Source of the DNA: Bacteroidales bacterium
GTDB taxonomy: Bacteria > Bacteroidota > Bacteroidia > Bacteroidales > UBA932
Assembly (NCBI GenBank): GCA_022648685.1
Contig: JALCMW010000011.1
Span: forward strand, 6,401 to 70,400
Length of the DNA: 64,000 nucleotides
Direction of reading: 5' to 3'
Part shown: positions 6,461 through 45,943 of the stretch, piece by piece
How the letters are laid out: the number at the start of each line of letters is the position of its first letter
Numbering within the stretch: the first letter of the stretch is position 1
The notes under the pieces: model-generated
Databases searched by the model: none
Told to the model about the DNA's origin: nothing
The model's input: only the letters and a program-made list of their open reading frames with translations
Translations under genes and position numbers: made by a program

Positions 6461-7369
6461 ATGATACGGAATTTCAAAGAACTTTATGACGAGCTCAAAG
6501 GCAAGAACATCAGAAAAAGGATGATCGCCGCATGGGCTGTCGATGAACATACCGTAGAAGCGGCTGCAATGGCCGCTGAAATGGGTTTTGTCGATCCACT
6601 GTTGATAGGAGACAGGAATTCGATAGAAAAGATATGTGCATGTAATAATATAGACACCGGAAAATTCGAAATAATCGATGAACCTTCCGAAAGCGGATCC
6701 ATAGAAAAAGCAGTGGGAATGGTTCACGACGGGAAAGGCGACTTTCTGATGAAAGGGCTGTGCAGCACAGACAAATTCCTTCATGCCGTTCTGGACAAGG
6801 AAAAAGGGCTGCTGCTCCCTAAATCCCTGCTGCTCCATGTAGGAGTCATGGAAACGCCGAAATACGGCAAACTCCTGTTCATGGGGGATATGGCGGTCAT
6901 CCCTTTGCCGGATTTAAAGCAAAAACAGATAATTACCGGATATGTGGTGAAAGTGGCACGTTCTTTCGGAATACAAGTTCCTAAAGTCGCTTTCATCGCC
7001 GCAACGGAACAAGTCCTTCCTTCGATGCCGGCCAGCATGGAAGGTGCGGCACTAGCCAAAATGGCTGAAAGAGGTCAGATCGGGAATTGCATAGCCGACG
7101 GGCCTCTTGCCCTTGATGTAGCCCTCAACAAGGAATCAGCGAGAATCAAGCATTTGGAAAGTCCGGTAGCCGGAGAAGCGGACTGCCTGATATTCCCCAA
7201 TATAGAATCTTCCAACGTGTTCTGGAAAACGAATTCCAAACTGGCCGACGGTGTAAAACTTGCCGGAATGCTCGTAGGAACAAAAGTTCCCTGTGTACTG
7301 GCAAGCCGAGCCGACAGCTTCGAGACCAAGCTGAATTCAATCGCGGAAGCGGTAATGTTTATAAAATAA
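6461..7369 (+). CDS. ptb: Phosphate butyryl/acyltransferase (PTA/PTB family)
   Basis: GDFLMKG, ADGPLALDVA, VAGEADCLIFPNIESSNVFWK and VPCVLASRADS motifs; abuts a butyrate kinase gene. Confidence 0.9.
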   Translation: MIRNFKELYDELKGKNIRKRMIAAWAVDEHTVEAAAMAAEMGFVDPLLIGDRNSIEKICACNNIDTGKFEIIDEPSESGSIEKAVGMVHDGKGDFLMKGLCSTDKFLHAVLDKEKGLLLPKSLLLHVGVMETPKYGKLLFMGDMAVIPLPDLKQKQIITGYVVKVARSFGIQVPKVAFIAATEQVLPSMPASMEGAALAKMAERGQIGNCIADGPLALDVALNKESARIKHLESPVAGEADCLIFPNIESSNVFWKTNSKLADGVKLAGMLVGTKVPCVLASRADSFETKLNSIAEAVMFIK

Positions 7370-8566
7370 ATGTATTATAAATATCATACAGAAATGCAGA
7401 ATAGTAACATCGTAAATACGGGGAATGAAAAGGGAAGGATTCTTGCCATAGACACGGGATCCACATCCACTAAACTCGGATATTATGTGGACGGGAAAGC
7501 TATTTTCGACACAAAACTGGTACATACGGCCGAAGAAACAGGTAAATACCGGAAAGTCATGGATCAGGACAAAATGAGAAGGGATGCCATAACCGATCTT
7601 CTTGGCAAAGAAGGAATACACCTTGATGATATCGATATAGTCATGGCAAGAGGAGGACTGTTTGCGCCTGTCATAACTGGGATATACAAAGTGAACAGAG
7701 ACATGAGAGATGTCCTGCTCACATGCAGGGACGGGATACATGCATGCAACTTAAGTGCTGTGATAGGAGATGATATCGCCGAACAGGTAAACGAATACAG
7801 GAAAGATAACAATCTCGAAGCGCCATTCGGATCCTGTGCGGCTTATATAGCGGATCCTCCCATGGCAGACGAGATGCTTCCCGAATGCCGCGTGGGAGGA
7901 ATCCCTGAATTTCCACGAAGAGCATTTTTCCATGCCCTCAATTCCAGAGCCACAGTCAAACGTTATCTTAGGGACAACGGGCACAAGACTAATGACATAA
8001 CCGCAATAGTAGCACATATGGGAGGAGGAATAACGGTAACACTGCATCGTAACGGAAGGGTGATAGATACAAACAACGGACTTGGAGGCGACGGGCCTTT
8101 CACGCCTGAAAGGGCCGGATCGTGTCCGGCATTTGCACTGGTGGAAATGTGTTTCAGCGGAAAATATACCGAAACGGAAGTCAAGAAGAAACTATTGGGG
8201 AAAGGCGGGGCCGTAGCTTATTTCGGGACAAACGACTTGGGGGAATTACTGGAAAGGGCACATGAAGGCGACAAAAAATGCGAAACTTTCATGAATGCTT
8301 TTAGTCTGAACATAGCGAAATATATATCTTCCGAAGCAGTGACAGTCAATGGAAAAGTTGACGTAATCCTGCTTACCGGAGGAGCGGCATACAGCAAGGA
8401 AATAACCGATGCCATTTCAAGAAGGGTGAATTTCATAGCACCGGTAGCGATATACGCAGGGGAAAACGAACTTAATTCATTGGCCGAAAACGGCTATACC
8501 GTTCTGAATCATACAGCTAAAATACACAGGTACGACAAGAACGCGATTGTAAACGACGAATATTAA
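7370..8566 (+). CDS. buk: Butyrate / branched-chain carboxylate kinase (acetokinase family), divergent
   Basis: ILAIDTGSTSTKLG, MARGGL, HALNSRA, VAHMGGGITV, GGDGPFTPERAG and ILLTGG motifs. The real start may be the later ATG (MQNSNIV). Confidence 0.9.
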   Translation: MYYKYHTEMQNSNIVNTGNEKGRILAIDTGSTSTKLGYYVDGKAIFDTKLVHTAEETGKYRKVMDQDKMRRDAITDLLGKEGIHLDDIDIVMARGGLFAPVITGIYKVNRDMRDVLLTCRDGIHACNLSAVIGDDIAEQVNEYRKDNNLEAPFGSCAAYIADPPMADEMLPECRVGGIPEFPRRAFFHALNSRATVKRYLRDNGHKTNDITAIVAHMGGGITVTLHRNGRVIDTNNGLGGDGPFTPERAGSCPAFALVEMCFSGKYTETEVKKKLLGKGGAVAYFGTNDLGELLERAHEGDKKCETFMNAFSLNIAKYISSEAVTVNGKVDVILLTGGAAYSKEITDAISRRVNFIAPVAIYAGENELNSLAENGYTVLNHTAKIHRYDKNAIVNDEY

Positions 8567-41033: not shown

Positions 41034-43460
41034 ATGTATCTTTCGGAACTGAAAACAGGAGAGCAAGCGGTAATAGTCAAGGTAAACGGACACGGTGGTT
41101 TCCGCAAAAGACTCATTGAGATGGGCTTTATCAGCGGAAAGAAAGTAAAGGTGATTCTCAATGCCCCGCTGAAAGATCCGATAGAATACGAAATCATAGG
41201 ATATAAAATATCATTAAGGCGGGAAGAAGCCGAACAAATCGAAGTAATCAGCGAAGAAGAAGCGAAAGAAGCGATAGCGACAAAAGAATTCGACGAACCT
41301 GTCATTGACAATGAAGAAGAGGAACAACAGCAGCTTGACGAAATGATGTCGTCCCTCGCCGAAGAAAGGCATCATGTGATACGGGTCGCCCTGGTCGGAA
41401 ACCCGAACTGCGGCAAAACTTCCCTTTTCAACGTGGCATCCGGAGGCCATGAACATGTAGGCAACTACAGCGGAGTGACGGTCGATGCCAAAGAAGGAAG
41501 ACTGGAATACAAACAATACAAATTCGTAATAGTAGACCTCCCTGGAACTTATTCCCTTTCCGCCTACAGCCCAGAAGAACTTTATGTCAGGAAAAATCTT
41601 ATAGAAAAGATGCCCGACGTAGTTGTAAACGTGGTGGATGCATCCAACATCGAAAGGAATCTGTATCTGACAACCCAGATTATAGACATGAATCTGAGGG
41701 TCGTCATGGCCCTGAATATGTATGATGAACTGGAAGCCAAGGGAGACGAACTGGATATCAGGCAATTGGGCTATCTGCTCGGAATGCCTGTCTGCCCTAC
41801 CGTAAGCCGTGACGGAAGAGGGATAAACGAGCTGTTCGACACCATCATAAAAATATACGAGCACAACGATCCTCATCTTGCCAGACATATCCATATTAAT
41901 CACGGAGAAGAACTGGAAAAAAGCATAAACCACCTCAAATCCGTTATCCAGGTAAATGAGCAGATCAGACATAAATATTCCACAAGGTTCCTGACGATAA
42001 AATATCTGGAAAATGACAGCGAAGTGGACAAGTTGGTGGAAGAACTGCCCAACAATGCAGAAATCAAAAAAGCCAAGGCATACGAGGACAAAAGGATAGA
42101 AGGACTTCTGCATTCCACTGCGGAATCCGCCATCGTCGATGCAAAATATGCCTTCATCCAAGGGGCCCTTGCGGAAACTTACAAACCTCATATAGAAGAA
42201 AAACCCAAACGGACAATCACCGACAAGATAGACGCGATCGTCACAAACAAATGGATAGCATTTCCTGTTTTCATCGCCATACTTTATCTGATTTTCCAGG
42301 CCACTTTCACTTTGGGCAATTATCCTATGTTGTGGATAGAATGGCTGGTCGAAAAAATAGGAATGCTTGCCGGAACCTTCATGAAAGCCGGATGGCTCAA
42401 GGATCTGATCACAGACGGAATAATAGGGGGCGTCGGAAGCGTACTCGTTTTCCTTCCTAACATCCTGATTCTCTATTTCTTCATTTCCCTGATGGAAGAT
42501 TCCGGATATATGTCCAGAGCGGCGTTCATCATGGACAAACTTATGCACAAGATCGGACTTCACGGGAAATCATTCATTCCGATGATCATGGGCTTCGGAT
42601 GCAACGTCCCTGCAATAATGGCGACAAGAACGATCGAAAACAGGAAAAGCAAGCTGATCACCATGGCGATCATTCCCTTCATGTCCTGCTCCGGCCGCCT
42701 GCCGATTTTCATACTGCTTTCGGGAATCTTTTTCGGATCCCATGCCGCTCTCGTCCTGCTGGGAATATATCTTCTCGGCATTGTAATGGCCATAATCTCG
42801 GCGAAAGTAATGAGCAAATTCGTCAAAGACGATGATCTTCCGTTCGTGATGGAACTGCCTCCTTACCGGGTACCGACAGGAAAAGCCATATTCCGGCACA
42901 CGTGGGAAAAGGGAAAACAATATCTGGAAAAGATGGCGACTACCATTTTGCTGTTTTCCATATTGATATGGTTCCTCGGATATTTTCCCAATCATAACAA
43001 ATACGGGTCCGTCAGGGAACAAAAAGAGAATTCATATATAGGATATATAGGAAAAGGCATAGAGCCGATAATGGAGCCTTTGGGATTCAATTGGAAAATG
43101 GGTGTCGGAATCCTTTCCGGCATAGGAGCCAAGGAACTGATAGTAAGCACTATGGGTGTCATGTATTCGGGAGAAGGACAGGAAGCGGGAGCCGATGAAA
43201 CGACAGTGTCTTCAGGCAAGGGAACTTCCGCATTGCCTGAAGACACGTCACTACAAAGGGGATTGAAAAACGACATCAGCACTGCAGGAGCTTTGGCATA
43301 CATGGTCTTCATATTGCTGTATTTCCCGTGCATCGCCACTTTTATCGCCATCAAAAACGAATCCGGCGGCTGGAAGTGGGCTATAGGCACTTGCATATAT
43401 ACGATCGTGATCGCCTGGATCATGGCTTTCGCCACTTATCACCTGTTTCTCCTGTTTTGA
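41034..43460 (+). CDS. feoB: Ferrous iron transporter FeoB with fused N-terminal FeoA domain
   Basis: FeoA (RKRLIEMGF...APLKDPIEY...ISLRREEA); G1 GNPNCGKT, GNYSGVTV, DLPGTYS, ALNMYD; membrane Gate motifs (GFGCNVPA, PFMSCSGRL, FVMELPPYR, YFPCIAT). Confidence 0.97.
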   Translation: MYLSELKTGEQAVIVKVNGHGGFRKRLIEMGFISGKKVKVILNAPLKDPIEYEIIGYKISLRREEAEQIEVISEEEAKEAIATKEFDEPVIDNEEEEQQQLDEMMSSLAEERHHVIRVALVGNPNCGKTSLFNVASGGHEHVGNYSGVTVDAKEGRLEYKQYKFVIVDLPGTYSLSAYSPEELYVRKNLIEKMPDVVVNVVDASNIERNLYLTTQIIDMNLRVVMALNMYDELEAKGDELDIRQLGYLLGMPVCPTVSRDGRGINELFDTIIKIYEHNDPHLARHIHINHGEELEKSINHLKSVIQVNEQIRHKYSTRFLTIKYLENDSEVDKLVEELPNNAEIKKAKAYEDKRIEGLLHSTAESAIVDAKYAFIQGALAETYKPHIEEKPKRTITDKIDAIVTNKWIAFPVFIAILYLIFQATFTLGNYPMLWIEWLVEKIGMLAGTFMKAGWLKDLITDGIIGGVGSVLVFLPNILILYFFISLMEDSGYMSRAAFIMDKLMHKIGLHGKSFIPMIMGFGCNVPAIMATRTIENRKSKLITMAIIPFMSCSGRLPIFILLSGIFFGSHAALVLLGIYLLGIVMAIISAKVMSKFVKDDDLPFVMELPPYRVPTGKAIFRHTWEKGKQYLEKMATTILLFSILIWFLGYFPNHNKYGSVREQKENSYIGYIGKGIEPIMEPLGFNWKMGVGILSGIGAKELIVSTMGVMYSGEGQEAGADETTVSSGKGTSALPEDTSLQRGLKNDISTAGALAYMVFILLYFPCIATFIAIKNESGGWKWAIGTCIYTIVIAWIMAFATYHLFLLF

Positions 43461-43678: not shown

Positions 43679-44203
43679 TTAGAAAGCGATGCCGAAAGAC
43701 ATCAATATCAGCTCCCTCTTGTAATTATACTTTTCCCCTTGCGTGTTTATTTCTCCGCTGTCATACGAGAAAGAACATTCCATGAAAAATCTTGAAACGT
43801 TCACTCCGACACCCGGGCATATCAGCAATCCGTGTCCGTGGGGCTTTGTGAATACGAATCCGGACTTGACATCGGCAAAAGGGCTGATAACATTATTCTT
43901 TGTGAAGGAATGCTTCATCTCCACAAAAATAGGAACAGTCCAATCATTGCCGGAATGGAAGTAGCAGCTTGTTCCCGTCCCCAGGTATGTACCTTCCCCG
44001 AAACCGTAACCAATGGAAGCAGAAGGAGCTATCTCAGATCCCTCGGTACCCCTTGTAACCAAAGCGGCACCTCCCATACTTGCGTAACCTGTTATTCCCT
44101 TCTTGAAGAAAGGAGAAGACATTCTTGTCTGAGCCGATGCGATAACGCCGGCAAATGTAAGTAAAACGAAAAATGCAATTTTATACAATACTTTCGTATT
44201 CAT
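43679..44203 (-). CDS. Small outer-membrane beta-barrel protein, function unknown
   Basis: Signal peptide, alternating amphipathic strands and C-terminal Phe (LILMSFGIAF). Confidence 0.7.
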   Translation of the reverse strand: MNTKVLYKIAFFVLLTFAGVIASAQTRMSSPFFKKGITGYASMGGAALVTRGTEGSEIAPSASIGYGFGEGTYLGTGTSCYFHSGNDWTVPIFVEMKHSFTKNNVISPFADVKSGFVFTKPHGHGLLICPGVGVNVSRFFMECSFSYDSGEINTQGEKYNYKRELILMSFGIAF

Positions 44204-44340: not shown

Positions 44341-44538
44341 CATTCAGGTCGACTAGTCTTTCAGATCTTTCAAGTCATCCAGGTCAGTCCTATTCATTCA
44401 GGCCATCCAAGTAGTCATCCAGATCAGTCAGGCTATCCAGATCAGTCCTATTCAGTCAGGCTATCCAGATCAGTCCTATTCAGTCAGGCTATCCAAGTCA
44501 TTCAGGCCATCCAGATCATCTAGGTCAGTCATATTCAG
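44341..44538. repeat. Degenerate tandem repeat of 9-mer units (ATYCARRKC-like) containing 2.5 perfect copies of a 28-bp unit
   Basis: CAGTCAGGCTATCCAGATCAGTCCTATT at 44425-44452 and 44453-44480, partial copy at 44481-44495; flanked by ATCCAGGTC / ATCCAAGTC / ATTCAGGCC variants. Confidence 0.85.
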
Positions 44539-45026
44539 ATAAGAAAAGGAAACAGTCTTTCTTCTTTTCTTTTTTCCCAAAAGCTACGCAACGTTCTGGA
44601 TCCCCCTCCAGTATCTGGAGCCCTAGAAGCGTTGATAATACGGTAGCTACGAGGTTCCATTATTAATTTCCTTACAGTATTTGGGATCCGCAACCATACG
44701 AAACATAGGCTAGAAGGAAAATCCAATGCACTAAAAAGAAACTTTTTCAAGGACAAACCCTTTTTAGTTATCCAACTTTTGGGGTGCGCTCCAACATTCA
44801 AATAGTCGACCTAAATCAGGAGACTACAAATATCCAATACATAAACGGTTGTCATTACATTTTGACCAGAGAAGGTCTTAGACTATATGTGACATCAAAA
44901 TATTGATAACCTGACTAATCATGATAAATATATACAAGGCTTATATTGCAGTAAATACTCCCCCGGAATGATACACACGAAATAATGATATTCACAAACA
45001 AAATGACAAGCCATGAAATCGGCACA

Positions 45027-45238
45027 GGAGAAGGGTGAAGTGTGTGATGCGTCTGAATCCGTGGCCGCCCGTGGCCTCGTGAACGGGTGGCCCAGACGAG
45101 CATCGATGAAGACGAAACCGGAAGAGGAATGCAAAATCGTCGTTCAGTTTTGGCAGTGTACCGACAAACAGCGATAGTGAGTCGGGGACGGGATGAGCGC
45201 TCTGCGCGAAGATGACGGCGCACACACACTTCCCCTCC
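45027..45238 (+). ncRNA. Candidate ~210-nt structured RNA or miniature element (unclassified)
   Basis: Closing stem GAAGTGTGTG (45037-45046) / CACACACTTC (45223-45232), extendable to about 14 bp; internal hairpins 45046-45104, 45130-45155 and 45161-45185; GC-rich within an AT-rich non-coding background. There is no expression evidence. Confidence 0.4.
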
Positions 45239-45472
45239 GCTGACCTTTTACTTAATCAGCAAATGTCGTTTATCTAATGACTACTCATATAGCAACCGGA
45301 CTCGTCCGTGTAATCGGTAACTTTAAAGTACTTGATTTTGGCAAAATAAAATACCCCACAAAAAGAGAAAACCGGCATTAGTAAATTTCAATAAGAATTT
45401 TCTAACAACGGAAAGAACAAATAACACTTAGTTCGTTCCTATTTTAAGAAAAATTCTTCATTTTTTAACGGA

Positions 45473-45760
45473 AGGCGGCCATGCTCCTGAATGTCTAAGT
45501 GGCTGTAAATGGCTACTTTAGCTCTTACCAAGCATGGACAGGTCGGCTATTTTAAGGGGGGCTGGCCATGGTGCAAAAGAGTTAAATAACTAGTTGTCAA
45601 CTATTTAACCCTTAGAGAGCATGGCCGCCTCCGGACTTTTTTTACAAATTCTACCGTCTTCTTCGAGTAAAGCGTTATCTCTTCCGGACATTTTTCACAG
45701 ATTCAGCCGTCTTCGAGTAAAGCATGGCCAACTCCGACATTTTTCACGTTTCCTACAAAT
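45473..45760. repeat. 14-bp inverted repeat enclosing a palindrome, followed by three imperfect ~50-bp tandem units
   Basis: AGGCGGCCATGCTC (45473-45486) / GAGCATGGCCGCCT (45617-45630); GTTAAATA-N13-TATTTAAC at about 45581-45609; units start at 45618, 45671 and 45721 (AGC-N10-CC(G)GAC-wTTTTTy-AC...CCGTC..TTCGAGTAA). Confidence 0.8.
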
Positions 45761-45812
45761 TTCCCAGAGAGGTGGCTGGATGAAGTGGAATAAGGGAAAT
45801 ACAATAAGAAAC

Positions 45813-45841: not shown

Positions 45842-45859
45842 GTATCGAATATTAAAAAG

Positions 45860-45943
45860 TGCGGATGGTGAGACTCGAACTCACACGGGCGCAATGCCCA
45901 CTACCCCCTCAAAGTAGCGTGTCTACCATTCCACCACATCCGC
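45860..45943 (-). tRNA. tRNA-Leu (anticodon GAG), CCA not encoded
   Basis: Reverse complement GCGGATGTGGTGGAATGGTAGACACGCTACTTTGAGGGGGTAGTGGGCATTGCGCCCGTGTGAGTTCGAGTCTCACCATCCGCA: acceptor stem GCGGATG/CATCCGC, anticodon loop TT-GAG-GG, long variable arm, GTTCGAG T-loop. Confidence 0.97.

Follow-up and report, generated by a model that had tools for sequence, protein, structure and literature searches.

The hairpin-junction element at positions 45027-45238 of the window (the whole 64-kb stretch of DNA that was analysed) belongs to an uncatalogued, multi-copy family of folded DNA or RNA elements which occurs across Bacteroidales, human-gut species included. The family unit is approximately 120-135 nt long, and its single-stranded form folds as a closed four-way junction in which about 30 nt of core are invariant across genera and habitats. 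The initial annotation had proposed a candidate novel ncRNA or MITE-like unit, a description that fits a dispersed, multi-copy and covarying family that is absent from Rfam 15. The folded species could be either RNA or single-stranded DNA, both of which fit the sequence.

Architecture of the family and of the window copy

The unit is closed by a stem, P1, of 20-30 bp whose sequence is particular to each locus and is paired nonetheless. Enclosed by P1 are, in order, CGUGG, helix P2, helix P3, GACGGGAUG(G)A, helix P4 and (G/C)GAAG, followed by the 3' arm of P1. P2 consists of CCGCCCGU, loop GGCCUCGUGA and ACGGGUGG and contains one G-U pair, and the junction strands around it (CGUGG, GACGGGAUGGA and GGAAG) are invariant. 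P3 is a hairpin which is variable in sequence and length. P4 is also a variable hairpin, usually with a GAA loop, and takes the form GC/GC, GCGC/GCGC, GCC/GGC, GCCC/GGGC or CACC/GGTG in members other than the window copy.

A covariance model built on 12 copies gave 107 matches in the fetched loci, including copies without the exact 26-mer discussed below (the hybrid in L088 and the second of the two copies in L093), and scored the window copy at 38 bits. In the alignment fitted to this model 94.3% of cells hold standard pairs, compared to about 40% after one partner is displaced against the other by 1-3 columns. Compensatory changes in the same alignment are found in 28 of the 28 pairs of P1 and five of the five pairs of P3, and the pairs of P2 never vary. 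RNAalifold independently predicts the identical four helices. The preference for the + strand that had been read from G-U pairs in the window copy holds family-wide, as the wobbles of P1 comprise 29 G-U and 7 A-C in 26 distinct stems, where an A-C on the written strand would be a G-U on the opposite strand. In P2 the wobble position holds G-U nearly throughout, with G-A or G-C in three diverged copies. The hybrid copy in L088 (9640-9830, - strand) has a P2 with G-C replacing G-U, as well as P3, and its P4 and P1 are replaced by a separate perfect 24-bp hairpin, GAGGGGATATAAGTAAGGAGGGGC...GCCCCTCCTTACTTATATCCCCTC.

The window copy is composed of the following parts, listed together with an overlapping open reading frame:

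45027-45058, + strand: P1 5' arm, GGAGAAGGGTGAAGTGTGTGATGCGTCTGAAT; degenerate, bulged and partly mismatched; pairs with 45212-45238 in the MFE fold
45059-45064, + strand: J1/2, CCGTGG; CGTGG is invariant in family alignments A1, A2 and A3
45065-45090, + strand: P2, the invariant core, CCGCCCGT, loop GGCCTCGTGA, ACGGGTGG; one G-U pair; intact
45091-45186, + strand: P3 domain with strands GACGAGC (45095-45101) and GCGA..GTC (45171-45183); loop enlarged by an insert of ~70-80 nt
45187-45196, + strand: J3/4, GACGGGATGA; family consensus GACGGGAUG(G)A, columns nearly invariant
45197-45207, + strand: P4 hairpin, GCGC-TCT-GCGC
45208-45211, + strand: J4/1, GAAG; (G/C)GAAG in the family alignments
45212-45238, + strand: P1 3' arm, ATGACGGCGCACACACACTTCCCCTCC; pairs with 45027-45058
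45013-45177, + strand: 54-codon ORF from automatic annotation, P0001 in the protein collection; spans the P1 arm, core and insert

The sharp GC enrichment reported for this copy is reproduced, with a GC content of 0.55-0.56 at 45025-45250 and 0.31-0.33 on either side. Closure of the ends was likewise borne out: 45037-46 (GAAGTGTGTG) is the exact complement of 45223-32 (CACACACTTC), and the closing stem of the window copy is lengthened by outer GGG/CCC and GGA/UCC pairs. Two of the internal hairpins that had been proposed were found and are family helices, GGCCGCCCGT/ACGGGTGGCC (45063-72 / 45083-92) being P2 and GCGC-TCT-GCGC (45197-207) being P4. The others were not supported by comparison. 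The helix GATGCGTCTG / CAGACGAGCATC is without comparative support, other members pairing the 5' segment with the 3' arm, and the hairpins placed within 45111-45185 sit in an insert that is limited to the window copy and one close relative. Judged from other members, GACGAGC is the 5' strand of P3, and alignment to L157 shows homology between the P3 strands of the window copy and CACGAGC-AAA-GCGAGTG, which L093 and L157 carry; theirs is the subtype with which the window copy aligns best (GAUGAGC...CGAAG). The P3 insert recurs in one other contig, and the depth over 45100-45129 is about 2x. The bulged P1 and the 70-80 extra nt of the P3 loop mark the window copy as either a variant of the family or a member in decay. 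Folding of this copy against shuffles gives a moderate gain, with z = -2.6 and -2.7 on the two strands, which is equal for both; with so moderate a gain the single sequence alone is not decisive, whereas the comparative data are.

Distribution, copy number and genomic placement

A total of 112 metagenome contigs, which derive from human gut, rumen, sludge and other sources, contain the exact 26-mer GCCGCCCGTGGCCTCGTGAACGGGTG (45064-45089). It was not found in viral contigs, and the family had no match in plasmid and phage collections. VOFC01004223.1 and VOFK01000212.1 are examples of gut contigs with the element. Most copies are without C45091 and C45092, and longer metagenome and viral patterns that contain both gave no match, as did a variable 30-mer scanned against genome contigs. 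The 64-kb window contains no second copy. The MAG that the window belongs to is a Bacteroidales from bioreactor sludge with Cryptobacteroides-like MAGs as its S16 relatives, and the metagenome runs containing the window stretch are from sludge. In 80 rpsP loci of relatives, where tRNA-Leu and rpsP are conserved, the element is absent, and the covariance model detected one diverged copy elsewhere in L041, a named Bacteroidales MAG (1 copy in 80 relatives' loci).

The lack of resemblance to familiar RNA classes that had been remarked upon extends to Rfam. A scan of the whole window at the gathering score returned tRNA-Leu only, and a local scan at E <= 10 gave no match on the window element. Rfam searches of 14 canonical loci likewise returned tRNA only, and one canonical copy searched at E <= 10 gave noise. 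Rfam also includes the HEARO and IS605-orfB motifs, both of which would have been scanned. A full-text literature search for the core strings found no paper, and keyword searches found no description of the element.

The copy number of the family was read from sequencing depth. In the sludge run X2 the flanking single-copy DNA has a depth of about 200, compared to approximately 7,200-8,400 at 45060-45089, or 40x the flank, and approximately 2,300-2,600 at 45180-45240 (the 3' module), or 12x the flank. The sludge assembly fragments into many short contigs at the element, with at least 13 variant contigs each near the MAG's own depth of about 200, and 45058-45090 has zero variable bases among the sludge contigs compared. 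Where the window copy has 45100-45184, its siblings from these samples have 14 nt such as ACGGCAGTGAGGAC. The same depth excess is seen in landfill metagenomes, and in a gut run the core reaches about 5x the flank. L093, L133 and L088 hold two copies each, 2-8 kb apart.

The window copy is itself intergenic and lies within a 1.65-kb gene-poor gap which is bordered on one side by the gene of a 174-aa secreted protein (43679-44203, -) and on the other by tRNA-Leu(GAG) (45859-45943, -), followed by rpsP and rimM. Upstream of this island is a gene for a fused FeoA-FeoB ferrous iron transporter (41034-43460, 808 aa), as is usual in Bacteroidales. It had been stated that no RT or nuclease gene is adjacent, and none was found among the neighbours, which are FeoAB, the secreted protein, tRNA-Leu, rpsP and rimM. 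Nor is there a transposase, RT or nuclease gene beside any copy examined, and an HUH...Y motif scan over 1.58 Mb of loci revealed no RAYT-like gene. The island contains other repeats. At 45406-45700 there is a second repeat family, which combines a perfect inverted repeat of 14 bp (45473-86 / 45617-30) with three direct repeats, each of about 50 bp. It is approximately 10x over-represented in sludge contigs and in other copies occurs directly 3' of the hairpin-junction element (45231 joined to 45462, with 21 nt between). Repeats that are tandem and overlapping, with lengths of about 28 to 56 nt (TAGTC.TCCAGATCAGTC...CTATCCA), are located at 44354-44550.

Elsewhere, intergenic copies directly follow the stop codon of an ordinary gene and often take up an entire convergent gap; these placement assignments rest on L093, L133, L141 and L154, and the orientation of the copies relative to the upstream gene is mixed. 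In contigs of human-gut Bacteroidales (GC 0.50-0.57) the element lies in frame within long ORFs, antisense to the gene. The contexts are as follows:

Intergenic copy: DsbD-like gene, element, tRNA
Intergenic copy: esterase, element, CarB
Intergenic copy: MscS, element, GAF-HD protein
Intergenic copy: cyclophilin, element, RidA
Genic copy: DnaX, in the inter-domain linker just after domain III; frame open
Genic copy: MiaB/MtaB-like radical-SAM protein (mtaB here), between the UPF0004 and Radical_SAM domains; frame open
Genic copy: MnmA, between the HUP and PRC-barrel domains; frame open

The genic copies encode peptides such as ...PSALRAPSR..PPVHEATGGHG... and are rare, an HMMER search with the element-encoded peptide finding 5 representatives in 1.8 billion proteins. 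At the mnmA locus of L122 (2150-2700) self-complementarity also exists outside P1 (GAAGTCATTCCGG ... CCGGAAT..GACTTC), and the host linkers have about 100 extra residues in all, which suggests nested or repeated palindromic insertions at one spot. In L112, L117, L170 and L192 the 5' arm of one locus is joined inside the core to the 3' arm of another, which would produce fusions of mnmA, mtaB and dnaX. The probable cause is chimeric metagenome assembly across the identical core of about 70 nt, although real recombination is conceivable.

Evolution in place and signs of mobility

Orthologous copies in related species evolve in an uneven manner. Their 75-nt core is 92-100% identical compared to 47-95% for the flanking coding DNA, a core identity which is partly due to ascertainment as every locus was fetched via the 26-mer; the 49 nt of core beyond the 26-mer likewise show much stronger conservation than the flanks. 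The P1 arms of the same copies are 65-93% identical with pairing retained. In the mtaB orthologue P0104, identity is 83% overall and the element-encoded peptide is identical. Such behaviour differs from the neutral decay that inactive selfish insertions would undergo; for the core to be so conserved, either every copy must be under selection or the copies must evolve in concert.

Signs of insertion were sought at the borders of the element. No direct repeat that could represent a target-site duplication flanks the stems in 24 distinct copies, and no empty site is present among the fetched loci or in the gut runs. The outer ends read (T)CCGGAGG...CCTCCGG(A) in many copies, the arms being different otherwise. 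One contig of run X2, which has a low depth of 7, connects 44582 with 45778 and 44309 with 44532, and may derive from a related strain without the whole 44583-45777 repeat island, element included. No transcripts of the window copy were found in RNA runs.

Interpretation and significance

The family shares features with several known classes of repeat. Like REP, BIME and REPIN sequences it is short, GC-rich, multi-copy and extragenic at gene 3' ends and in convergent gaps, forms hairpins in single strands and is without a transposase of its own, and like REPs it has short conserved feet (ACGGGTGG, GACGGGATGG) before the variable hairpins P3 and P4. The GT[AG]G foot of REPs is absent, however, the feet here being CGTGG, ACGGGTGG and GACGGGATGG. 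The REPs of RAYT subclass 2.6 are also without GTAG, and in Bacteroidetes the genes of this subclass are flanked by genome-recurrent 'atypical secondary structures' (PMC6006769). The foot of the Pirellula REP under subclass 2.6, GA[CT]GGGTGG, resembles ACGGGTGG and GACGGGATGG, an 8-mer match that could be due to chance. REPINs combine conserved arms with a variable spacer, whereas here the arms differ per locus and the enclosed four-way junction is invariant; in addition, and unlike in REPs or REPINs, the core is identical across genera and some copies are in frame inside genes.

In this last respect the family is reminiscent of the RPE of Rickettsia, reportedly described by Ogata et al. in 2000 under the title 'Selfish DNA in protein-coding genes of Rickettsia'. 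RPEs are palindromic repeats of about 100-150 bp, both intergenic and in frame in housekeeping genes, where they occupy tolerated surface or linker positions. The genic copies described above likewise lie at tolerated linker positions in housekeeping proteins, yet lineage and sequence are unrelated, genic copies are rare here and conservation of the core greatly exceeds that of the host gene. MITEs, among them ERIC and the Correia elements of Neisseria, are non-autonomous, have inverted ends, are co-transcribed with their neighbours and can function as terminators or RNase III substrates. The present family is also non-autonomous with inverted ends, but it lacks a target-site duplication, its TIRs are semi-conserved (outer CCGGAGG) around an invariant interior, and no related IS was found. 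Finally, an inverted repeat that closes the ends around internal hairpins is shared with retron msr-msd and IS guide RNAs. This analogy, drawn in the initial annotation, is not supported, as no RT, TnpB or IscB adjoins any copy examined, and the many copies per genome and the absence of an Rfam match set the family further apart.

The reading we favour, with about even confidence, is that of an interspersed structured repeat of the REP/MITE/RPE-like kind which is bound in single-stranded form by a trans factor, and it includes P1 as an incidental bidirectional terminator. It is proposed that the family spread by insertion as a non-autonomous element, since three unrelated essential genes have been hit and the copies are multiple, patchy and without a linked gene. 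Copies would have survived where harm is small, namely at gene 3' ends, in convergent gaps and in in-frame inter-domain linkers. The invariant junction may then serve as the recognition module for a trans-acting factor, which may be a Y1/HUH RAYT-like transposase (a single-strand nucleic-acid enzyme) or another binding protein, and the long GC-rich hairpin of P1 would incidentally act as a bidirectional terminator or 3'-end protector. Several observations sit poorly with a REP/MITE-like repeat. A target-site duplication, an empty site and an autonomous partner were not found, the arms are not conserved as the TIRs bound by transposases usually are, and a conserved core between arms that have diverged yet remain paired points to purifying selection in situ or to concerted evolution. 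Core identity across genera is seen more often in functional RNAs, or in sites for a conserved host factor.

The inverted pattern of conservation, the cross-genus core and the compensation in situ are the reverse of what REPINs display and are typical of functional RNAs, and for this reason a second reading is retained as a serious though clearly less probable one, in which the family is a functional structured RNA whose four-way junction is either a ribozyme or a binding site for a conserved host protein. Such an RNA would have been dispersed secondarily, with its fold selected in every copy. About 30 nt of core invariant across genera and habitats would be in keeping with such an RNA, as would orthologous copies that compensate in P1 and keep the core even in coding regions, the one-strand excess of G-U (29 compared to 7), and P3 and P4, which vary in length and sequence and remain hairpins in the manner of peripheral RNA helices. 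However, the copies in dnaX, mnmA and mtaB are antisense, so that the + strand would need its own promoter there, orientation to the upstream gene is inconsistent, copies number from few to tens and are patchy (1 copy in 80 relatives' loci), and an Rfam relative is absent. If the core were instead recognised as double-stranded DNA, it could be a site for a recombinase, a replication-terminator-like site or a cruciform. The core contains the direct repeats CGTGGCC and ACGGG(A)TGG, twice each and at roughly helical spacing, and the four contigs named above join the arms of different loci within it. We consider a duplex site improbable, as the covariation of P1, P3 and P4 needs intrastrand pairing, and as chimeras would fuse essential genes, for which an assembly error at a repeat of about 70 nt is the simpler explanation.

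Copies inside essential genes, with a long closing stem that unites their ends, could also be intervening sequences which are removed from transcripts, whether intron-like or excised by RNase III. This is very unlikely, given that a metatranscriptome contig of 3,029 nt and others are continuous across the mnmA copy (assembled contigs), and that the frame is open in all genic copies, which would be needless upon excision. Splice joints were not seen in the contigs, as opposed to reads, of eight runs, of which five are filed as metatranscriptomic, two were guessed to be RNA and one is of unknown kind. The least credible reading of all is that of a small protein gene, the 54-codon + ORF at 45013-45177, or of a chance GC-rich fold. 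In favour are the prediction of the ORF by an annotation pipeline, a homologue of equal length (P0003, 83% identity) and a single-sequence z of only -2.6. This homologue is the single one among 5.8 billion proteins, however, 9 of its 54 residues are changed so that the sequence looks unconstrained, and the ORF has no Pfam match. Other family members are without it, the family being defined by nucleotides, and the nucleotide core is common to more than 100 loci that lack the ORF, which is judged to be spurious and not a conserved protein. A chance fold is excluded by the existence of the family.

REP, REPIN, RPE and Correia repeats influence the termination of transcription, the stability of mRNAs and the plasticity of genomes, and to our knowledge interspersed structured repeats have hardly been described in Bacteroidales. 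The present family is unusual in that its architecture is the inverse of that of REPINs, its core is conserved to the level of a functional RNA and some of its copies in gut species are translated within essential proteins. It provides a defined and searchable motif, which could serve as a route to the responsible enzyme or binding factor and as a flag for spurious small ORFs, and which could also account for breaks and chimeras in the assembly of Bacteroidales MAGs. It is possible, though we put this forward tentatively, that the invariant junction core is a new functional single-stranded module, be it a new ribozyme, an RNA to which a protein binds or the substrate for an undescribed enzyme acting on ssDNA or RNA. 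If true, such a module would propagate through Bacteroidales, including abundant human-gut species, and would be selected in every copy, even in frame inside the essential genes dnaX, mnmA and mtaB.
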